56,672 nt of DNA from Patescibacteria group bacterium. Its GTDB lineage: Bacteria; Patescibacteriota; Minisyncoccia; Minisyncoccales; CG1-02-41-26. The notes beneath the pieces were generated by a model, which was not told the DNA's origin, did not search any database, and saw only the letters and a program-made list of their open reading frames with translations. Shown piece after piece: positions 2,356 to 27,557 of the stretch. Both the position numbers and the translations under genes were made by a program. The stretch's first letter is position 1, and every line of letters starts with the position of its first letter. The stretch covers positions 1 to 56,672 of the forward strand of contig JAMCXQ010000005.1 in NCBI GenBank assembly GCA_023474835.1, read 5' to 3'.

Positions 2356-3093
2356 ATGCATAAAAAGCTTGCAAAGTATTTTTTATTGTTGGCAGCTGTT
2401 CTTTTAGCGGTTTTTAATTGGGGTTATATTTCATGGCTTTTCAATTACCAGTTTTTGGGCGATAACCTGTCTTATTTGGCGGGCAAACTGGTGCGCCGTT
2501 TTGATTTATCGGTGAGTTGGGACCAATTAATGGCGCAGGCGAGTTCAAGCGGCCTGTCAATTATTCAGGCCAGCCCTCAAGCCGGCATCCAAACTGTCTC
2601 AGGAACAGCCCCGCAACCGCAGCAGCCGGCGCAGCTCGCCAGAGACTTTGCCAAACAAAATTATCAGGCAGGAAACGATTTCATTTCCATTCCGAAAATC
2701 GGAGCCAGGTCGCCGATTCTGATTACCTCGCAAAACAGCAACTCGGTTTTCCTGAATCTTTTGAAAAAAGGCGTTTTGCTCTATCCCTTGTCGGTTTTGC
2801 CGGGCAAAAGGGGAGTAACGGTTATTTTGGGGCATTCCGCGCCGCCTAAATGGCCCGGGCAGGTTGACAGAATTTTCAACCGGCTCAAGGATTTGGAAGC
2901 TGGCGATTCTGTTTTGGTTCATTTTAACGGTAAAGATTATAATTACGAGGTCAAAAGGACGTATTTCGTGGACAGGGGCGGCGAGCTTTCCGCGTTGACA
3001 TTTGATAAAAACGTGCTATTATTGGTGAGTTGTTGGCCTCCGGGCAAAAATATAAAAAGAATCGTAGTGGAGGCGGAAATAAATAACAATTAA
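2356..3093 (+). CDS. sortase family transpeptidase
   Basis: N-terminal membrane anchor, then His (VILGHSAPP), Cys (LLLVSCWPPG, TLxTC-like) and Arg (KRIVVEAE) in sortase order. Confidence 0.7.
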   Translation: MHKKLAKYFLLLAAVLLAVFNWGYISWLFNYQFLGDNLSYLAGKLVRRFDLSVSWDQLMAQASSSGLSIIQASPQAGIQTVSGTAPQPQQPAQLARDFAKQNYQAGNDFISIPKIGARSPILITSQNSNSVFLNLLKKGVLLYPLSVLPGKRGVTVILGHSAPPKWPGQVDRIFNRLKDLEAGDSVLVHFNGKDYNYEVKRTYFVDRGGELSALTFDKNVLLLVSCWPPGKNIKRIVVEAEINNN

Positions 3094-5843: not shown

Positions 5844-6275
5844 ATGTTTTTAGGCGAATACCAATATTCAATAGATGACAAGAAACGTTTGGCTATACCG
5901 GTAAAGTTCCGGCCTTCTTTGGGCAGAAAAGCGGTGATTACGCGAGGGCTGGATAATTGTCTGTTTATGTTTCCGCTTAAAGAGTGGGGGATATTGGCCG
6001 AGAAATTAAGCAAGCTGCCTCTGTCGCAATCAGACGCGCGGGGGTTCAGCCGTATTATGCTGGCAGGCGCTATGGAGGTTGATTTGGACGCAATGGGCAG
6101 AATTTTAGTGCCTGATTATCTGAAACAATACGCGGGCTTGGCAAAAAAAGTTGTGCTGGCCGGTCTTTTCAACCGGGTGGAAATATGGGACGAAGCCAAA
6201 TGGCAGGAATACAAAGAAAAAACCGAAAAAGAAGCGGGAAACATAGCGGAACGGCTGAAAGAATTGGGAGTATAG
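5844..6275 (+). CDS. mraZ: transcriptional regulator MraZ
   Basis: MFLGEYQYSIDDKKRLAIPVKFR plus a second RILVP repeat, with the typical size and position before rsmH. Confidence 0.93.
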   Translation: MFLGEYQYSIDDKKRLAIPVKFRPSLGRKAVITRGLDNCLFMFPLKEWGILAEKLSKLPLSQSDARGFSRIMLAGAMEVDLDAMGRILVPDYLKQYAGLAKKVVLAGLFNRVEIWDEAKWQEYKEKTEKEAGNIAERLKELGV

Positions 6276-10463: not shown

Positions 10464-10684
10464 AGAATGGCCTTGTCATCTAATGGGTCAAAGCCAACTG
10501 CTTGGCTTTGACGGGAATCTTAGAAAACTCTCCGAGTTTTCGTTAAGAAATTCCCCGGCACATTATGTTTAAGCCAACTGCTTGGCTTTGACGGCCGATT
10601 TAGGAAATCGTCCCCGATTTCCGTTAAAAATCGGCCAGGCATTCCTTAATTTATTACAATATCAGGTAGTGTTACGGTAAGAAT
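10464..10684 (+). repeat. tRNA-linked structured repeat: 23-nt copy of the tRNA-Glu 5' end followed by two hairpin-pair units
   Basis: 10464-10486 is identical to 10680-10702. HP1 GTCAAAGCCAA-CTGC-TTGGCTTTGAC is at 10487-10512, with a partial copy at 10571-10592. Two-tier hairpins HP2 are at 10513-10556 and 10593-10636, followed by AGGCATTCCTTAA. Confidence 0.75.
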
Positions 10685-21042: not shown

Positions 21043-21163
21043 TTGCCGGGTCGTCTAATGGGTCAAAGCCAACTACTTGGCTTTGACGGGCGATTTAGGA
21101 AATCGCCCCCGATTTCCATTAAAAATCGCCCAGGTCTTCCTTAAAAAGTTAGGCAAATTTATT
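21043..21163 (+). repeat. tRNA-linked structured repeat: 19-nt copy of the tRNA-Gln 5' end followed by a hairpin pair
   Basis: 21043-21061 is identical to 21163-21181. HP1 GTCAAAGCCAA-CTAC-TTGGCTTTGAC is at 21062-21087 and HP2 at 21088-21131, followed by AGGTCTTCCTTAA. Same family as 10464-10684. Confidence 0.75.
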
Positions 21164-21235
21164 TGCCGGGTCGTCTAATGGTAGGACGTCTCCCTTTGGA
21201 GGAGAATATTCTAGGTTCGAATCCTAGCCCGGCAG
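21164..21235 (+). tRNA. tRNA-Gln (anticodon TTG)
   Basis: Acceptor TGCCGGG/CCCGGCA (U1-A72, as in bacterial tRNA-Gln), anticodon arm TCTCC-CTTTGGA-GGAGA, T arm CTAGG-TTCGAAT-CCTAG. Confidence 0.85.
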
Positions 21236-21280
21236 CTGATAGAAAATCTTGTTGCGAAGCAACTTAGATTTTCATCATCC

Positions 21281-21406
21281 CGAACTGAAATTGTTTTAAA
21301 ATATTCAGAACAATTCGAAACCTTAAAACAAGCCAGACACCGTGAGGCTGAAATCAAAAGCTGGCGCCGCGAAAAGAAATTAGCGTTAATGAGTCATGGC
21401 AAATAG
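21281..21406 (+). pseudogene. C-terminal remnant of a GIY-YIG (UPF0213-like) nuclease gene
   Basis: Translates as RTEIVLKYSEQFETLKQARHREAEIKSWRREKKLALMSHGK*, which resembles only the last ~40 aa of small GIY-YIG proteins. There is no start codon or N-terminal GIY-YIG part. Its stop overlaps the MTase start. Confidence 0.45.
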
Positions 21407-22502
21407 TAATCTTACTAACGCGAAACAGGCAAAGAATGATGAGTTTTACACGCAATATGGCGATATTCAAAAAGAGATTGAGGCGTATTTGGAATTTAAC
21501 CCAAATGTATTTCGGGGCAGGGTTGTGTATTGCAACTGCGACGATCCGTTTGAAAGCAATTTTTTTCGCTATTTTACGCTTAATTTCAACAAGCTTGGCT
21601 TAAAACAGCTTATTACCACAAGCTACAAGCCCTCGCCCGTAGCCAACACGCAACTGAAATTGTTTGGCGATGATAAAACCCTTACAAAATCAAAGGGCCG
21701 CCCCAAGATAACCGCCAATAAATTTATTATCAATGAAGTAGCTGATATGGACAGCGATGGCGATTTTGATTTAAAGGACATTGCCAAGCAGTTAAAGGCG
21801 AATAAGCACAATGAATGGACGCCGCTTGAGAAAGACGGCGATTTTAGAAGTTCCGAATGCGTAAAATTATTGAAGCAATCAGACATCGTGGTAACAAATC
21901 CGCCGTTTAGTTTGTTTCGTGAATACGTGAAACAACTTATTGAGTATAATAAAAAGTTTGTGATTATCGGCAACAAAAATTGCGTGACATACAAGGAAAT
22001 TTTCCCATTGATTAAAGACAACAAAATGTGGTCTGGCAAAACAGAATGGTCTGGCGGGTTATGGTTCGTAACCATGGATGATGGCGATGTAGATAAAGTA
22101 GTCAATGGCGTTAATATGAAGAATGTGTCTTCTGTTTGGTTTACCAACATAGACCACGGCAGGCGGCATCAGCCATTGCCGCTTATGACAATGGAAGAAA
22201 ATTTGAAATACAGCAAACACAAAGAAATTCAAGGCAAATCGTCGTATGACAAATATGACAACTACGACGCCATAGAAGTGCCCTTTACTGACGCTATCCC
22301 AAGCGATTATAGCGGCGTAATGGGTGTGCCCATCAGTTTTTTGGATAAATATAGCCCCGAACAATTTGAGATTGTTGGGATGGCAGAGGATAATGGCAAA
22401 GGTTTCTCTGGCGGAATTTGGGACGGCAAAAATCCTCACTGTGTCATAAACGGAGAAAATAAGTTCAAGCGAATTTTTATTAAGCATAAGAAAGTTAAGT
22501 AA
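21396..22502 (+). CDS. N6-adenine DNA methyltransferase, EcoRI-methylase-like family
   Basis: N-terminal KNDEFYTQY, catalytic IVVTNPPFSLF (NPPF), and no adjacent restriction endonuclease recognised. Confidence 0.75.
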   Translation: MANSNLTNAKQAKNDEFYTQYGDIQKEIEAYLEFNPNVFRGRVVYCNCDDPFESNFFRYFTLNFNKLGLKQLITTSYKPSPVANTQLKLFGDDKTLTKSKGRPKITANKFIINEVADMDSDGDFDLKDIAKQLKANKHNEWTPLEKDGDFRSSECVKLLKQSDIVVTNPPFSLFREYVKQLIEYNKKFVIIGNKNCVTYKEIFPLIKDNKMWSGKTEWSGGLWFVTMDDGDVDKVVNGVNMKNVSSVWFTNIDHGRRHQPLPLMTMEENLKYSKHKEIQGKSSYDKYDNYDAIEVPFTDAIPSDYSGVMGVPISFLDKYSPEQFEIVGMAEDNGKGFSGGIWDGKNPHCVINGENKFKRIFIKHKKVK

Positions 22503-22508
22503 AAAAAT

Positions 22509-23018
22509 ATGGCAACAAAAAGACAAGTTTTTTACAGTTTTCATTACAAACCAGATTGTTGGCGAGCTTCCCAAGTTCGAAATATTGGAGCCATTGAAGG
22601 GAATAAACCAGCACCTGATAATGATTGGGAAACTATTATAAGAAGTGGCGATGACGCTATTAAAAAATGGATTAAAGATCAAATGAAATACCGATCATGC
22701 ACGGTTGTGCTTGTCGGCGAAAATACTGCTAATCGCAAATGGATAAATCATGAAATAGTTGAATCATGGAATGCAGGAATGGGAGTTGTTGGAATTTGTA
22801 TTCATGGTTTAAAAAATCAAGATGGATATATTGCAAATCAAGGACATGATCCATTCAATTACATTACATATGGCGATAGCGGTAAAAAATTATCATCAAT
22901 AGTAAAATGTTATAATCCGTCAGGAAGTAATAGTAAAGAAAGATATGATTGGATTTATCAATATATTTCTGATGCTGTTGAAGAAGCTATAAGAATTAGA
23001 AATAATTATTCAAAATAA
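22509..23018 (+). CDS. TIR-like protein (DUF1863/ThsB-type)
   Basis: RQVFYSFHYKPDCWRASQVRN, TVVLVGENTANRKWINHEIVESW and GVVGICIHGLKN, a pattern I associate with ThsB-type TIR-like domains. Confidence 0.7.
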   Translation: MATKRQVFYSFHYKPDCWRASQVRNIGAIEGNKPAPDNDWETIIRSGDDAIKKWIKDQMKYRSCTVVLVGENTANRKWINHEIVESWNAGMGVVGICIHGLKNQDGYIANQGHDPFNYITYGDSGKKLSSIVKCYNPSGSNSKERYDWIYQYISDAVEEAIRIRNNYSK

Positions 23019-23021
23019 AAT

Positions 23022-23459
23022 ATGGAAAATCCAACTGAATACAAACATTGTCCAAATAAAATTGCACACTTGCAGATGATTCAAGGTGTTATTGATCGTA
23101 TGGCCGGAAATTTATTTTATCTAAGGGGGTGGGCGATTACGCTACTTGCTGGGCTTTTTGCCATTTCTACTTCGGAAGCGTTAAGCCTCGCAAAGTGGGT
23201 TCCGTTATTATTTTTTGTTTTATTGATTTTATTTTGGATTTATGACGGATATTTTCTTTCTTTGGAGCGTAAATTTAGAGGTTTATATGATAAGATTAGG
23301 AAATTTCCGGAAGAGGAAATTGATTTTTCAATGAATATTGGAGAATTTAAAACTCATGCTGACAAAACGATGTTTGCTACAATATTATCTCCGACGCTAT
23401 TAGGATTTTACGGCATTCTAAGTTTGGCTATGCTGGTAATTATTAAATTTATTTTATAA
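23022..23459 (+). CDS. small membrane protein (3 predicted helices), candidate effector
   Basis: Hydrophobic helices lie at about aa 36-56, 59-78 and 119-143, with a charged linker SLERKFRGLYDKIRKFPEEEIDF. It is embedded between the two TIR-like genes with 3-nt and 1-nt gaps. Confidence 0.65.
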   Translation: MENPTEYKHCPNKIAHLQMIQGVIDRMAGNLFYLRGWAITLLAGLFAISTSEALSLAKWVPLLFFVLLILFWIYDGYFLSLERKFRGLYDKIRKFPEEEIDFSMNIGEFKTHADKTMFATILSPTLLGFYGILSLAMLVIIKFIL

Positions 23460-23460
23460 A

Positions 23461-24135
23461 ATGGCAAGAAAAATTTTCATTAGCTATAAATACGGAGATA
23501 CCGGCGTTCAACATATACCGCGCTATGGCGAATATGATGCAACGACAGCACGACATTATGTTGATGTTTTGCAAACAAAATTGGATGTGGCAGATCATAT
23601 CAATAAAGGGGAAAACGACGGCGAGGATATGAGTAAGTTTAAGGACGAAACGATAGAATCAAATTTGAGAAATAAAATTTTTGACAGTTCAATTACGATT
23701 GTCCTGATATCTAAAAATATGAAAGACCCCTATCTTGCCGAGGATGACCAGTGGATTCCTTGGGAAATTGCATACTCAATGAAAGAAATTACGCGCAACG
23801 GAAGAACAAGCGGAACAAATGCGATGCTAGCCGTCGTCCTCCCTGATGAGAATGGAAATTATTCGTATGTTGTAAATCACTATCAATGCGTAACTGTTTG
23901 GAATGTCGCATCTTTGTTTAAAATTATAGAAAGCAATATGTTTAATCGAAATCAGAAAAATTTAATTCGCTGCGTAACCTGCGGCGGTATTCATCATACA
24001 GGACAAGACCATTCATATATTCATCCAGTCAAATGGTGCGACTTCATTATTAACATTGATGGATATCTTAATCATGTTATTGGGCATCAAAGTAATCTTG
24101 ATAGTTTTGATATTGTAAAAGAAATAACGCATTAA
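23461..24135 (+). CDS. second TIR-like protein with Cys/His-rich C-terminal part
   Basis: ARKIFISYKYGD, ITIVLISKNMKD, QWIPWEIAYSM and a C-terminal CVTCGGIHHTGQDHSYIHPVKWCDF. Confidence 0.6.
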   Translation: MARKIFISYKYGDTGVQHIPRYGEYDATTARHYVDVLQTKLDVADHINKGENDGEDMSKFKDETIESNLRNKIFDSSITIVLISKNMKDPYLAEDDQWIPWEIAYSMKEITRNGRTSGTNAMLAVVLPDENGNYSYVVNHYQCVTVWNVASLFKIIESNMFNRNQKNLIRCVTCGGIHHTGQDHSYIHPVKWCDFIINIDGYLNHVIGHQSNLDSFDIVKEITH

Positions 24136-24145
24136 TTAAAAAAAT

Positions 24146-24199
24146 ATGAAAGCAATTTTAAAAAGCGACACTACTGTTAAAGATATTTGCGAGGGGTGA
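24146..24199 (+). pseudogene. 17-codon remnant of a DUF262-type gene start
   Basis: MKAILKSDTTVKDICEG* compared with [18 protein letters not shown] at 24930; 42 of 52 nt are identical by hand alignment. It starts 10 nt after the TIR gene stop. Confidence 0.6.
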
Positions 24200-24297
24200 A
24201 AATTATAGGCAATGGCGGGATTAAGTTGGAAAATTGAACTACCGAGGAATCCTCGGTAGTTCAAAAAACTTCGAATAAATTAGTTGAATAATAAGTT

Positions 24298-24699
24298 ATG
24301 GAGAAAGAAAATTATAAAAAAGAGTTTGATAAATGGAATATCCAAAAAAAGATTACTCACAATAGTGAAAATAAAAAAACTTTTCACGAACAAGAAATTT
24401 GGTTTATTAAAATTGGCGAGAATATTGGTTTTGAACAAGACGGAAAGGGCGAGGATTTTTTAAGGCCAGTTATTGTTTACAAAAAATTTTCAAAAAATGT
24501 TTTTTTGGGCATACCTTTAACAAAAGCAATAAAAGAAAATAAGTTTTATAAGGTATTTGATTTTCATGGAGAAAAAAGCAATGCAATTCTGTCGCAAATA
24601 AGACTTTTTGATTCAAAGAGATTAAAATATAAAATTGGAAAAATGAGTTCTGTTGATTTTGCTTCTGTAAAAGAAAAACTCATCCAGTTGATTAGATGA
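24298..24699 (+). CDS. MazF/PemK-like toxin, no adjacent antitoxin gene seen
   Basis: EIWFIKIGENIGFEQDGKGEDFLRPVIVYKKF..FLGIPLTKAIKE..AILSQIRLFDSKRL fits the PemK/MazF family pattern. Confidence 0.65.
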   Translation: MEKENYKKEFDKWNIQKKITHNSENKKTFHEQEIWFIKIGENIGFEQDGKGEDFLRPVIVYKKFSKNVFLGIPLTKAIKENKFYKVFDFHGEKSNAILSQIRLFDSKRLKYKIGKMSSVDFASVKEKLIQLIR

Positions 24700-24786
24700 G
24701 TTTTCCCTGTTTTTACTCCCCATAAGGGGAGAGAGTCCTAATGGACATTTATATTGTAATATTACCATATTTTAAAGTTAAAAGTC

Positions 24787-24907
24787 AATAGTAGGACTTA
24801 CGCGTTTGGGCATTTTTTCTCAAAAATCGCGTGAAATATGGCCTTATTTCGTGGCCTCATTGCACAAAAAATGGCTAAAACTGGCCAAACGCGTAAGTCC
24901 TAAATAG
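24787..24907. mobile_element. MITE-like element: 18-bp perfect terminal inverted repeats with 5-bp AATAG flanking duplication
   Basis: TAGGACTTACGCGTTTGG (24792-24809) and CCAAACGCGTAAGTCCTA (24885-24902) enclose a 75-nt non-coding core. AATAG occurs at 24787-24791 and again at 24903-24907. Confidence 0.55.
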
Positions 24908-24929
24908 TTTAAAAAAGTGAAAAAACAAT

Positions 24930-26099
24930 ATGAAAACGATTTTAAAAACCAATATTACCGTTAGAGAAATTTGCGACGGGTTTGTTTATAACGAGCTTGA
25001 GGGCAAAGGCTTGTTTGGCTTGTCTGGCAAATTGACTATTCAGCCGGAATATCAACGCAACTATATCTATGCTTCCGATGGGGGCAAAAAAGAAATTGCT
25101 GTTATTGGCTCAATTCTTAAGGGCTATCCAATTGGCTTAATTTATTTTAATAAGGTTTCTGAAAATAACCTGGAAGTTTTAGACGGGCAACAACGGATTA
25201 CCAGCTTAGGGCGGTTTATAACCGATAAATTTGCCATTAAAGATGCAAACAATATGGAGCAATATTTTAATGGTATGGCGAAAGACAAACAAGCCAAAAT
25301 TTTGGAAACCAAACTTTTGATTTACGAATGCGAAGGCACGGAAAGCGAGATAAAAGAATGGTTTAAAACGATTAATATTGCCGGCGTGCCGCTTAATAAT
25401 CAGGAATTGCTTAATGCTGTTTATTCTGGGCCGTTTGTAACGCTCGGCAAAGAAGAGTTTAGCAACAGCCAAAACGCCAATATCCAGAAATGGAGCGCCT
25501 ATATATCGGGCAGCGCTAACCGGCAGGACTTTTTGGAACGCGCTTTGGATTGGGTAAGCAAAGGAAATATCGGGGACTATATGAGCCACCATCGTTTTGA
25601 TAAAAATATCACTGAGCTCAAAAAATATTTCAACAGCGTGATTGATTGGGTTTCTGCTATATTTATTGATGTGGAAAGCGAGATGCGCGGGCTGGAATGG
25701 GGCAGATTATACGAACAGTATCATAAGAAAGCGTATGACCCCGTCAAAGTCTCAGCCGAAGTGCAAAAGCTTTACGCTGATCCGTATGTAAAAAATCGCA
25801 GGGGGATTTTTGAGTATATTCTCGGCGGTTCCGTTGACACGAAATTGCTTGATGTTAGAGTTTTTGACGAAGCAACCAAGAAAGCTGTTTATACAACGCA
25901 AACTGCTGCGGCCGGAAAGAAAGAAAAGTCAAACTGCCCGCATTGCGCCATTGGGCACGACGCCAACAAGAGCAAAATTTGGAGTTTTGGTGAAATGGAC
26001 GCCGATCACGTAGCGGCCTGGAGCAAGGGAGGCGCAACTACAGCTAAGAATTGTCAGATGCTTTGCAAGACACATAATCGAGCGAAAGGTAATCGATAA
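24930..26099 (+). CDS. DUF262 (ParB/GmrSD-N-like) plus HNH nuclease fusion protein
   Basis: [16 protein letters not shown] (the DGQQR motif of DUF262). C-terminal [31 protein letters not shown] is an HNH motif. Confidence 0.75.
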
Positions 26100-26250
26100 T
26101 TTTATCTATGCAGGGTTACCTAATATGCCCGGATCGATTATTGAGCCCGAGCTTCCAAAAAAGACGAAAAAAGATTAGAATCGATATAATCTCGAGTTAA
26201 TTGTTAGGGGTTCGGGGTATAAATATACCCGCATTGTTGCTGAAGTATAT

Positions 26251-26277
26251 TTCTAGCATTTACCAACTCTCGCAGCA
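26251..26277 (+). repeat. 27-nt direct repeat, left copy (TTCTAGCATTTACCAACTCTCGCAGCA)
   Basis: Matches 27488-27514 at 24 of 27 positions. Each copy is followed by a short hairpin using CAACTC/GAGTTG. Confidence 0.6.
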
Positions 26278-26379
26278 GAGTTTGCAAGAGTTGACAGAGA
26301 ATAGAAGGGAAAACTGACAAAAGTTTACAAGTTATCTTTGTGGGTCAACTAATAATTAATTTTAATAAATTTAATCAAT

Positions 26380-26742
26380 ATGGTATCTCCTCAACTTTGG
26401 TTAGAAATATTATCTCTTACAAAAGCTCTTTTTGATGCTATTAAGTCGGGCGCAGATCTTCTTGCGAGCTATCAGAAGCATAAACAAGAAAAAGAAACAG
26501 TTCAGGAGTCTCAGAGGGTAAGCGAAGTATTTTCTACCTACTCAGAAAATGAAGTAAAAAAGATTCTTTTACGATTAGAACAATGTCGGGATCGATTTAT
26601 TAAACAAGGTGGTGGTACGGATAGAGCGTCCTGTTTATGTAGTATATTGAATGAGGTTAAGATTGGTAATGGAGGTCAGCTTCCTATTATAGATGATTGG
26701 GCTAATATTTATCGTCAACTAGGGTGTGGTACTCATCAGTAA
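26380..26742 (+). CDS. hypothetical protein (120 aa)
   Basis: AT-rich ORF in the island; no motif recognised. Confidence 0.45.
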   Translation: MVSPQLWLEILSLTKALFDAIKSGADLLASYQKHKQEKETVQESQRVSEVFSTYSENEVKKILLRLEQCRDRFIKQGGGTDRASCLCSILNEVKIGNGGQLPIIDDWANIYRQLGCGTHQ

Positions 26743-26810
26743 TATTGATTCTAATCGAGACTAATGTTGCTAGAGGAGTTAAAAATAAACATAAATTTTT
26801 TTATAGAAAC

Positions 26811-27458
26811 ATGCAAAGTTTATTAGATACAAATCTAGAAAGAATTAAATCAGAAATACAACAAAATTCTTGGAATAATAAAGATATAGTTTCTTTAATG
26901 AATTTTTTTAGGCATATTTTAGAGTCAAGCAAATCTCAAGGAAAATATAAATATATTAATCTCTATTCTAATTGGGTATTTCACACGGAGATAACTAAAA
27001 ATTCAGTAGCAATGGATATTCTGGATATTTTGACTGATTCAATGATCAAACATAACGTTAATCCTAAAGATGGAAAGTGGGTTAACGATGCGATTATTGA
27101 AGGACTTTCACTTCATCTATTAAGAGAAGAAATTTTGTCATTCTCAAAAGAATTTAATCTTGGTACAGATGTTAACATTTACGAATTTAATAATTGGAAA
27201 AATTTTGCAGTGTCCTTAATAAAGGAATTATTAAATAAACCCTTGAAAGTCATTCAAAATAAGACGATATATAATAACCTTATCGATAAAGCAAATAAAT
27301 CAGGGTATATCGGCAATGCAGTATTAGCAATATATTTTTGGGTAGATAATAATGGGATTGTCCATTGGAAAATCGATACACCAGAAAGTTTAAGAAAGGG
27401 CGTTTCAGTAATTGGCCCGATGAGTATAATTTCTCAGCAGATGATCGATGGTTGTTAA
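26811..27458 (+). CDS. hypothetical protein (about 216 aa)
   Basis: ATG at 26811. The track's GTG at 26724 would overlap the upstream gene. No motif recognised. Confidence 0.45.
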   Translation: MQSLLDTNLERIKSEIQQNSWNNKDIVSLMNFFRHILESSKSQGKYKYINLYSNWVFHTEITKNSVAMDILDILTDSMIKHNVNPKDGKWVNDAIIEGLSLHLLREEILSFSKEFNLGTDVNIYEFNNWKNFAVSLIKELLNKPLKVIQNKTIYNNLIDKANKSGYIGNAVLAIYFWVDNNGIVHWKIDTPESLRKGVSVIGPMSIISQQMIDGC

Positions 27459-27487
27459 GCGGAAATTGAAGAGTTTGCCATTAAAAT

Positions 27488-27514
27488 TCTTCTAACATTT
27501 ACCAACTCTCGTAA
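27488..27514 (+). repeat. 27-nt direct repeat, right copy (TTCTAACATTTACCAACTCTCGTAACA)
   Basis: See 26251-26277. Confidence 0.6.
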
Positions 27515-27557
27515 CAATCGTGGACTTTTTGAGTTCGGGAATGCAAATATAGCTATA

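Follow-up and report, generated by a model that had tools for sequence, protein, structure and literature searches.

Two nearly identical sequences of 27 nt enclose a pair of very AT-rich open reading frames (ORFs), ORF1 and ORF2, in a 56,672-nt contig from a Patescibacteria group bacterium (JAMCXQ010000005.1 of assembly GCA_023474835.1; this whole stretch is referred to as the window), and the locus raises the question of what these 27-mers are and whether the two genes between them belong together. A first-pass annotation had offered two explanations for the repeats, attachment (att)-like scars of an inserted two-gene module or a shared regulatory element, and had proposed the gene pair as a two-component defence or toxin-immunity module. 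The answer favoured here, with a probability of about 0.68, is that the 27-mers are recombinase-derived arms of two att junctions, which would have been left as elements inserted one after another, site-specifically, behind a tRNA-Gln gene at its 3' end. The window is contig C7 of a 94%-complete genome of 647 kb, a size that fits Patescibacteria (Candidate Phyla Radiation, CPR), and the L-numbered loci mentioned below are, apart from L113 of the same genome, public contigs with which it was compared, all of the data coming from metagenome assemblies.

The two copies match at 24 of 27 positions, as had been noted, and such a pair was obtained in none of 100 shuffles of the window. Copy A lies where it was first placed (26251-26277), while copy B, first given as 27488-27514, was offset by 2 nt and occupies 27490-27516. 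The ORF coordinates bear out that the repeats enclose ORF1 and ORF2, and the AT-richness described for this stretch is seen as a drop in G+C to 0.26-0.35. Searching the whole 647-kb genome, both with 16-mers allowing up to 2 mismatches and with nhmmer profiles, returned exactly two copies, and the 27-mer is therefore not a common intergenic motif in this genome, the circumstance under which the first-pass annotation would have given up its proposal. The likeness between copies A and B ends after ~27-29 nt. A longer conserved stretch (~26099-26283), which other low-G+C contigs also have, terminates in copy A, and copy B has only its 27 nt in common with it.

The identity of the repeat emerged from scanning public contigs for the 20-nt core of the 27-mer and from a search of the tail peptide, padded and with only the tail scored, against ~5.8 billion proteins. 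Each 27-mer consists of nine minus-strand codons (LRELVNxRN) of a large-serine-recombinase (LSR) gene, which belong to its 3' end and adjoin the point where homology to everything else ends. The conserved core of ~72 nt that contains the 27-mer accumulates substitutions with a period of three (entropy by phase 0.47/0.53/0.93), and in 25/25 copies no stop interrupts one minus-strand frame, which reads W-LRIVDNVRTIIQRQNEYIYIPDL and terminates no more than a few codons later. Neither a conserved N-terminus nor a conserved start codon is present in the tail copies, and the sequence is therefore the end of a gene rather than a gene; a genuine small protein on the minus strand was rejected for the same reason, several copies also having a stop immediately upstream. 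Two intact proteins, P0184 (545 aa) and P0185 (538 aa), have exactly this tail peptide as their C-terminus, and a third intact LSR with this tail is the 552-aa G549 ORF; all three contain Resolvase, Recombinase and Zn-ribbon Pfam domains, and their tails provide the association with a recombinase that is looked for in an LSR att junction. The DNA of P0184 and P0185 runs on into the same conserved downstream block as is found with the detached copies, the block being placed after the P0185 stop codon in L112. A long ORF is joined to only ~1-2 of ~80 tail copies in the phylum sample. In this family of Patescibacteria LSRs the last ~26 codons of the gene and ~55 nt downstream would form a detachable unit, whose upstream edge is a conserved Trp codon at which homology always breaks. 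Two other origins of the peptide were dismissed: its matches to threonyl-tRNA synthetase are internal to that protein and have chance-level E-values, and a phage source is not borne out, as the core is not present in viral contigs.

Detached tails are widespread in the phylum, a census of 401 genomes of the order and 401 genomes of a phylum-wide sample having recovered them from 42 and 45 genomes, respectively (~11%). They occur mostly in same-strand arrays with a spacing of 0.6-1.6 kb, and in the four arrays inspected the genes between tails are co-oriented and opposite to the recombinase tail, which often starts 11-27 nt past the stop codon of the preceding gene. The cargo of these arrays includes radical SAM, GDSL lipase, NUDIX, RibD_C, Ham1 and lamin-tail domain proteins. 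It is behind tRNA genes that the arrays begin: in L107, which comes from a distant family, a GIY-YIG gene and tRNA-Gln(TTG) are followed by four tail-bounded cassettes; in L096, tRNA-Asn is followed by four tail copies; and in L030, tRNA-Gln(TTG) is followed by LexA-like and OLD-like genes and then a tail. The window has the same plan, including a remnant of a GIY-YIG gene. The arrays are not integrons, since the attC core pair RYYYAAC...GTTRRRY bounds none of 13 inter-cassette regions, and an integron attC array was also rejected for want of a consensus fold.

Further tRNA genes were seen close to detached tails, the flanks of which hold 9 tRNA matches in ~29 kb where ~2 would be expected by our own estimate; tRNAs near tails occur in L079 (1381-1608), L075, L084, L092 and L077, and the long-arm tRNA of L079 begins ~40 nt beyond the tail. 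Small GIY-YIG genes (81-88 aa), or a remnant of one, also recur beside tRNA-Gln or within arrays in distant genomes.

The junctions in the window link the repeats to its tRNA-Gln gene, which is the proposed integration target, the equivalent regions of L003, L030 and L107 being likewise anchored by tRNA-Gln. The gene ends in ...CCCGGCAGCT in the window and in L003 and in ...CCCGCAGCA in L030 and L008, and the CGCAGCA with which copy A ends is the ending of tRNA-Gln in L030 and L008. The remnant directly behind the tRNA matches the C-terminal end of the L007 GIY-YIG protein (53% identity over 40 aa, E = 1e-11), and the order in L007 is tRNA-Gln, GIY-YIG, ORF2 homolog, 27-mer. Next in the window comes a low-G+C block coding for an EcoRI-like methylase, ThsB-TIR, a PDC-M50A membrane protein, ThsB, a MazF-like protein and a DUF262-HNH nuclease, so that the defence-island surroundings recognized by the first-pass annotation, with restriction-modification (R-M), Thoeris, MazF-like and DUF262-HNH genes, were confirmed with Pfam and PADLOC. 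The right flank of copy B shares an exact 14-nt run, at the same offset, with the sequence right after the L030 tRNA-Gln (0/1000 shuffles); the native flank of the tRNA gene therefore lies now 6.3 kb away, beyond copy B, and a similar flank repeat surrounds the ORF1 homolog of L008 (0/1000 shuffles). The region thus has the outline of a tRNA-targeted island, as it abuts tRNA-Gln, part of the tRNA end recurs at copies A and B, and the native flank then follows; no integrase gene was found inside the island, which holds merely the 23-codon recombinase tail.

The ends of the cassette with ORF2 are also conserved while its surroundings change. The left end of the ORF1-ORF2 cassette resembles the stretch of L003 that runs from the end of tRNA-Gln to the ORF2 homolog (0/300 shuffles); the left end of the L003 ORF2 cassette abuts the tRNA-Gln terminus, and the left ends of L003 and L007 are also alike (0/300 shuffles). 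Diverged 27-mers follow the stop codon of the ORF2 homologs at the same place in L003 and L007, so that copy B moves together with ORF2; as a unit, ORF2 and its 27-mer have constant ends (26802-27511 in window coordinates) and differing outer flanks in the window, L003 and L007. Copy A belongs to the neighbouring 5-kb island and not to the ORF1-ORF2 cassette. The hairpins first described after each repeat held up for copy A (-17.6 kcal/mol, z = -2.8) but not for copy B, which is at background (z = -0.8). The dyad at copy A, symmetric around a central sequence, is read here as an attP-like site. The copy B and tRNA junctions appear to be hybrids, as would be expected for attL and attR.

Table 1. 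Coordinates of the features discussed (window numbering unless a locus is named; a point in the strand column marks a feature without strand)
Feature	Position	Strand	Description
tRNA-Gln(TTG)	21164-21236	+	ARAGORN, Rfam; 3' end ...CCCGGCAGCT; proposed integration target (attB side)
GIY-YIG 3' remnant	21272-21394	+	Directly behind tRNA-Gln
Cargo of the putative newer insert	21396-26099	+	Pfam, PADLOC; low G+C
Non-coding conserved stretch	26099-26206	.	Downstream of recombinase stop in recombinase (minus) orientation
Detached LSR 3' tail	26210-26278	-	LLRELVNARNILQQQCGYIYTPNP, then stop; six-frame match; 23 codons
27-mer copy A	26251-26277	+	TTCTAGCATTTACCAACTCTCGCAGCA; nine tail codons at homology break; ends CGCAGCA
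Copy A junction dyad	26264-26293	.	CAACTCT-CGCAGC-AGAGTTtG, extended ...CAAGAGTTG; -17.6 kcal/mol, z = -2.8
ORF1-ORF2 cassette left end	26278-26345	+	GAGTTTGCAAGAGTTGACAGAG...TGACAAAAGTTTACAA
ORF1	26380-26742	+	120 aa; all-helical; four conserved Cys (C69, C85, C87, C116)
ORF2	26811-27458	+	215 aa from ATG; alpha/beta fold; family without Pfam model
27-mer copy B	27490-27516	+	TTCTAACATTTACCAACTCTCGTAACA; bare recombinase-tail arm, cassette right end; ends CGTAACA
Native tRNA-Gln downstream flank, displaced	27517-27545	+	ATCGTGGACTTTTTGAGT; TGGACTTTTTGAGT at 27521-27534
TspO-fusion gene	27558		Next gene
Own-genome LSR locus (L113)	Contig C11: 2233-6504		LSR gene at L113 1483-3024
L113 inverted repeat	1217-1338 / 2861-2982		Perfect, 122 nt; equals LSR's last ~40 codons
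L113 tRNA-Ala	2977-3052	-	Convergent with LSR gene 3' end
GIY-YIG sites	L107 5762-6007; L108 6901-7152; L007 233-499; window 21272-21394

The sequence of events that would produce this arrangement has two steps. In the first, the tRNA-Gln end would recombine with a circle that bore one tail arm and ORF2 (with ORF1), giving the order tRNA-Gln, cassette left end, ORF1, ORF2, 27-mer (copy B) and native flank; the ORF1-ORF2 segment (26278-27516) would thus be the older insert. In the second, a 5-kb element with R-M, Thoeris, MazF and DUF262-HNH genes and a complete recombinase tail would insert at the same tRNA end, pushing the first cassette outward and creating copy A, the junction of which with the left end of the older cassette would restore the dyad-symmetric attP-like site. 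The newest cargo would then lie nearest the tRNA, as in other accretion systems, and the outward-facing junction of the circle would be the 27-mer joined to GAGTTTGCAAGAGTTGACA. From the sequence we infer the catalysis by an LSR in trans, the exact crossover point and the order of insertion; the recombinase must act in trans because the genome holds no LSR body with a matching tail. The first-pass idea of an att-like scar thus survives in that the repeats are recombinase-derived arms at probable insertion junctions behind tRNA-Gln, but not in that they would be private to an inserted module, as they belong to an LSR tail found across the phylum.

Under this stepwise model ORF1 and ORF2 are the cargo of one accretion step and not a co-evolved pair. 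As the first-pass annotation had said, no motif is recognizable in them, neither protein matching Pfam, NCBIfam, PHROGs or PADLOC. The remote-homology and structure predictions it had called for gave confident AlphaFold2 (AF2) models, with a predicted local distance difference test score (pLDDT) of 88.8 for ORF1, a helical bundle, and 93.9 for ORF2, and no housekeeping family or known relative was found: the PDB holds no relative of either protein by sequence or fold, nor of ORF2 by profile. In Pfam, NCBIfam, PHROGs, PADLOC and the PDB, neither protein significantly matched any known family of defence proteins, toxins or antitoxins. The two families differ in size, with 244 representatives of ORF2 at E <= 1e-3 (exhaustive HMMER) and ~30 homologs of ORF1. 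Of the two closest ORF2 homologs, the one with 80% identity (L003) lies directly behind tRNA-Gln(TTG) in a housekeeping region (DnaX, NYN) and the one with 69% identity (L007) behind tRNA-Gln(CTG) and a GIY-YIG gene, both without ORF1.

It could still be argued that ORF1 and ORF2 are a dedicated two-component defence or toxin-immunity module moving as a unit, with the 27-mers as its own att scars. The pair does sit in a defence island among R-M genes, Thoeris-type TIR genes, MazF and DUF262-HNH, both proteins are uncharacterized and confidently folded, and ORF1 homologs are sometimes found amid defence-type genes (SMODS and DUF6119 in L114; AIG2 and HATPase_c_3 in L012). This explanation is nevertheless very unlikely and is largely refuted by missing co-occurrence, the test that the first-pass annotation had itself set for its proposal: across 3 distinct ORF2 contexts and 8 ORF1 contexts, the closest ORF2 homologs are without ORF1 and none of the eight ORF1 contexts has ORF2. 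The neighbours of ORF1 homologs are mutually unrelated (membrane proteins, serine recombinases, AIG2 with HATPase_c_3, SMODS/DUF6119 and GGDEF), and in L008 and L010, the pair of loci for which a direct comparison was made, the genes that follow ORF1 show no relation to ORF2 (E > 1). The unequal family sizes, the lack of PADLOC matches and the phylum-wide distribution of the 27-mer, which is not private to the pair, also count against a dedicated module. ORF1 and ORF2 are best treated as two independent cargo genes instead of a candidate paired defence system. A role of ORF1 as an accessory or directionality factor of the recombinase was considered and rejected, as a serine recombinase is nearby in just 2/8 contexts.

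Another explanation places the repeat in a small transcribed unit, an sRNA (small RNA) gene or transcriptional insulator punctuating operons, which would be duplicated here as one kind of regulatory RNA or promoter serves the two genes downstream. In front of array cores there is a conserved block in which an extended -10-like box occurs (TGATAnnAT; in the window, TATAAT at 26186-26191), and behind them come a hairpin and a T-run; the preceding gene has its own terminator, and both window copies stand 5' of a gene. Against this, no Rfam family matches the element, at gathering or permissive thresholds, in the window or in 10 related loci, and RNAalifold on 47 copies gives an energy of 0 on both strands, equal to shuffled columns, and hence no consensus structure; a helix seen by eye (TTGTGGAC/GTCCACGA) is limited to one subfamily, and a structured RNA was rejected. 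The codon periodicity is on the opposite strand, the sequence can be shown to be where a recombinase gene ends at its 3' side, and copy B, at only 27 nt, has neither promoter-like nor terminator-like parts. A transcribed unit is accordingly quite unlikely, and the shared regulatory element of the first-pass annotation is not supported either, given the missing Rfam match and consensus structure and the coding periodicity. It is also improbable, if a little less so, that the tails are passive debris of many decayed recombinase genes, the 27-mers being related only through descent, or through homologous recombination or gene conversion among such remnants, and not through any site-specific event where they stand. 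Such decay would suit the rarity of tails attached to a long ORF and the variable sequence upstream of the tail even among intact genes, and gene conversion could be why copy B resembles copy A more than the versions in L003 and L007 do; random decay, however, would not end dozens of copies at one shared codon or set them out regularly among co-oriented cassettes that follow tRNA genes, nor would it hold cassette ends constant while flanks change or move the native tRNA flank to just past copy B. None of these alternatives accounts at once for a displaced flank, cassette ends that stay constant and arrays that are regular.

Several points weigh against successive insertion by an LSR. The whole data set consists of metagenome assemblies, and recombination itself is deduced from its presumed products, with no excised circle or empty site in evidence; the available relatives, among which an empty site was sought and not found, are of different genera and have no synteny upstream of TspO. 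An LSR with the matching tail was not found in the genome, the only LSR of which (contig C11, 513 aa) shares 25% identity with P0184, has a different tail and is linked to tRNA-Ala and not tRNA-Gln. The identity between the tRNA end and the 27-mer amounts to just 7 nt. LSRs normally recombine attP with attB only and do not reuse a hybrid site, so that repeated use of the same tRNA end after the first insertion needs explaining. Directly before the tail, the sequence differs even from one intact LSR to another, and the sharp break may therefore be partly a natural conservation boundary and not a crossover point. Between ORF1 and ORF2 there is no remnant of a site, which leaves their shared cassette unexplained.

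The LSR gene on contig C11 offers a parallel for the proposed mechanism. One arm of the perfect inverted repeat at this locus ends 6 nt inside the 3' end of tRNA-Ala, where the protein ends in ...NQLWW|TRADSNRWPPHCK, and the other arm goes on as ...NQLWW|CLLEKVRTHFEQNPD, a related tail. The tail of this LSR looks to be swappable by inversion or by integration at the tRNA end, as expected of a recombinase gene broken at an internal att site. A broader view, which is held tentatively and at somewhat less than even odds, is that Patescibacteria have an integron-like accretion by LSRs whose att site lies in their own 3' coding end. Every insertion behind a tRNA gene would leave a detached tail, giving rise to tRNA-anchored arrays of recombinase-less accessory and defence cassettes. 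Were this true, the pair of 27-mers in the window would be one small instance of it, and accretion would be a main route of gene gain in minimal genomes.

Among the known systems closest to the locus is the staphylococcal cassette chromosome (SCC, SCCmec), in which the Ccr large serine recombinases act at the 3' end of rlmH/orfX in staphylococci. In both, recombinases of the large serine family are involved, elements go in where a conserved gene ends (3'), several cassettes accrete in tandem at one site, and many cassettes have no recombinase of their own and are bounded by short direct repeats, which in SCC are of the integration-site sequence. Unlike SCC, the target here is a tRNA gene end, the phylum is Patescibacteria, the system is known from sequence alone, and the boundary comes from the recombinase's own 3' coding end (~26 codons plus downstream sequence) and not from the host gene that is targeted. 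As in tRNA-targeted islands and prophages, the region starts exactly at a tRNA 3' end, the last tRNA bases recur at the distal border, the native flank is displaced and the cargo is rich in defence genes; those islands usually have tyrosine integrases, whereas the serine family is implicated here, with a tRNA-like repeat of ~7 nt, a recombinase tail without a body, and multiple nested junctions. The SSV1-type integrases of archaeal viruses have attP inside the int gene, and integration splits the gene; in common with them are an att site within the recombinase ORF and a gene fragment that stays as a fossil beside the tRNA, but those are archaeal tyrosine recombinases split nearer the 5' end, while here a bacterial serine recombinase has only its last ~26 codons detached. 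Integrons and clusters of attC sites lacking integron-integrases (CALINs) share the co-oriented arrays of mostly single-gene accessory cassettes, usually with no recombinase adjoining, and a conserved element of ~70-130 nt just 3' of each gene; they differ in their RYYYAAC...GTTRRRY cores and conserved hairpin, neither of which is present here, the boundary being a fragment of a serine-recombinase gene, and in their anchoring at attI/intI as opposed to tRNA genes. What sets the locus apart from all four is a boundary formed by the serine recombinase's own detached 3' coding end, together with the tRNA anchor.

Literature searches on cassette arrays or integrons in Patescibacteria found nothing relevant. 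The phylum has tiny genomes (~0.5-1 Mb) and few recognized mobile elements, and its gain of accessory and defence genes is poorly understood. If true, tRNA-anchored arrays bounded by detached recombinase 3' ends would amount to a specific and testable way in which genes accrete throughout the phylum, and the tail peptide ...IVDNVRTIIQRQxEYIYIPDL would be a tag by which annotators could find variable islands and the borders of cassettes. Genome engineers, too, could take an interest in recombinases whose compact sites are set by the end of a tRNA.

Some smaller features of the locus may be added. At 26355-26382 a conserved extended -10-like box (TTTGATATACT; TTTAATAAATT in the window) lies only ~8-10 nt before the start codon of ORF1, as it does ahead of the ORF1 homologs in L011, L012 and L014, which suggests that the leader of the ORF1 mRNA is very short or absent. 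Two-hairpin repeats fused to the 5' stubs of tRNA-Gln and tRNA-Glu (21043-21163, 10464-10680) were set aside, as they are unrelated in sequence to the tail element. The stretch at 26099-26206 is 84-86% identical to L030 and L031, and in L035 and L033 it stands apart as the 5' portion of the longer conserved stretch. Within it, after the DUF262-HNH gene, is a mini-ORF of 17 codons (MPGSIIEPELPKKTKKD; 26126-26179, plus strand), in which 7/10 codon differences from the L030 copy are synonymous by hand count, and the frame of which is disrupted by an indel in L031. The stretch around copy A is split in L035 (2275-2820), where a 120-aa glyoxalase-like gene stands between its 5' and 3' parts, and in L033, from a Candidatus Paceibacterota metagenome-assembled genome, where the parts (984-1048 and 5891-5916) are 4.8 kb apart; as it can be split in this way, the conserved stretch around copy A may hold a second insertion point.

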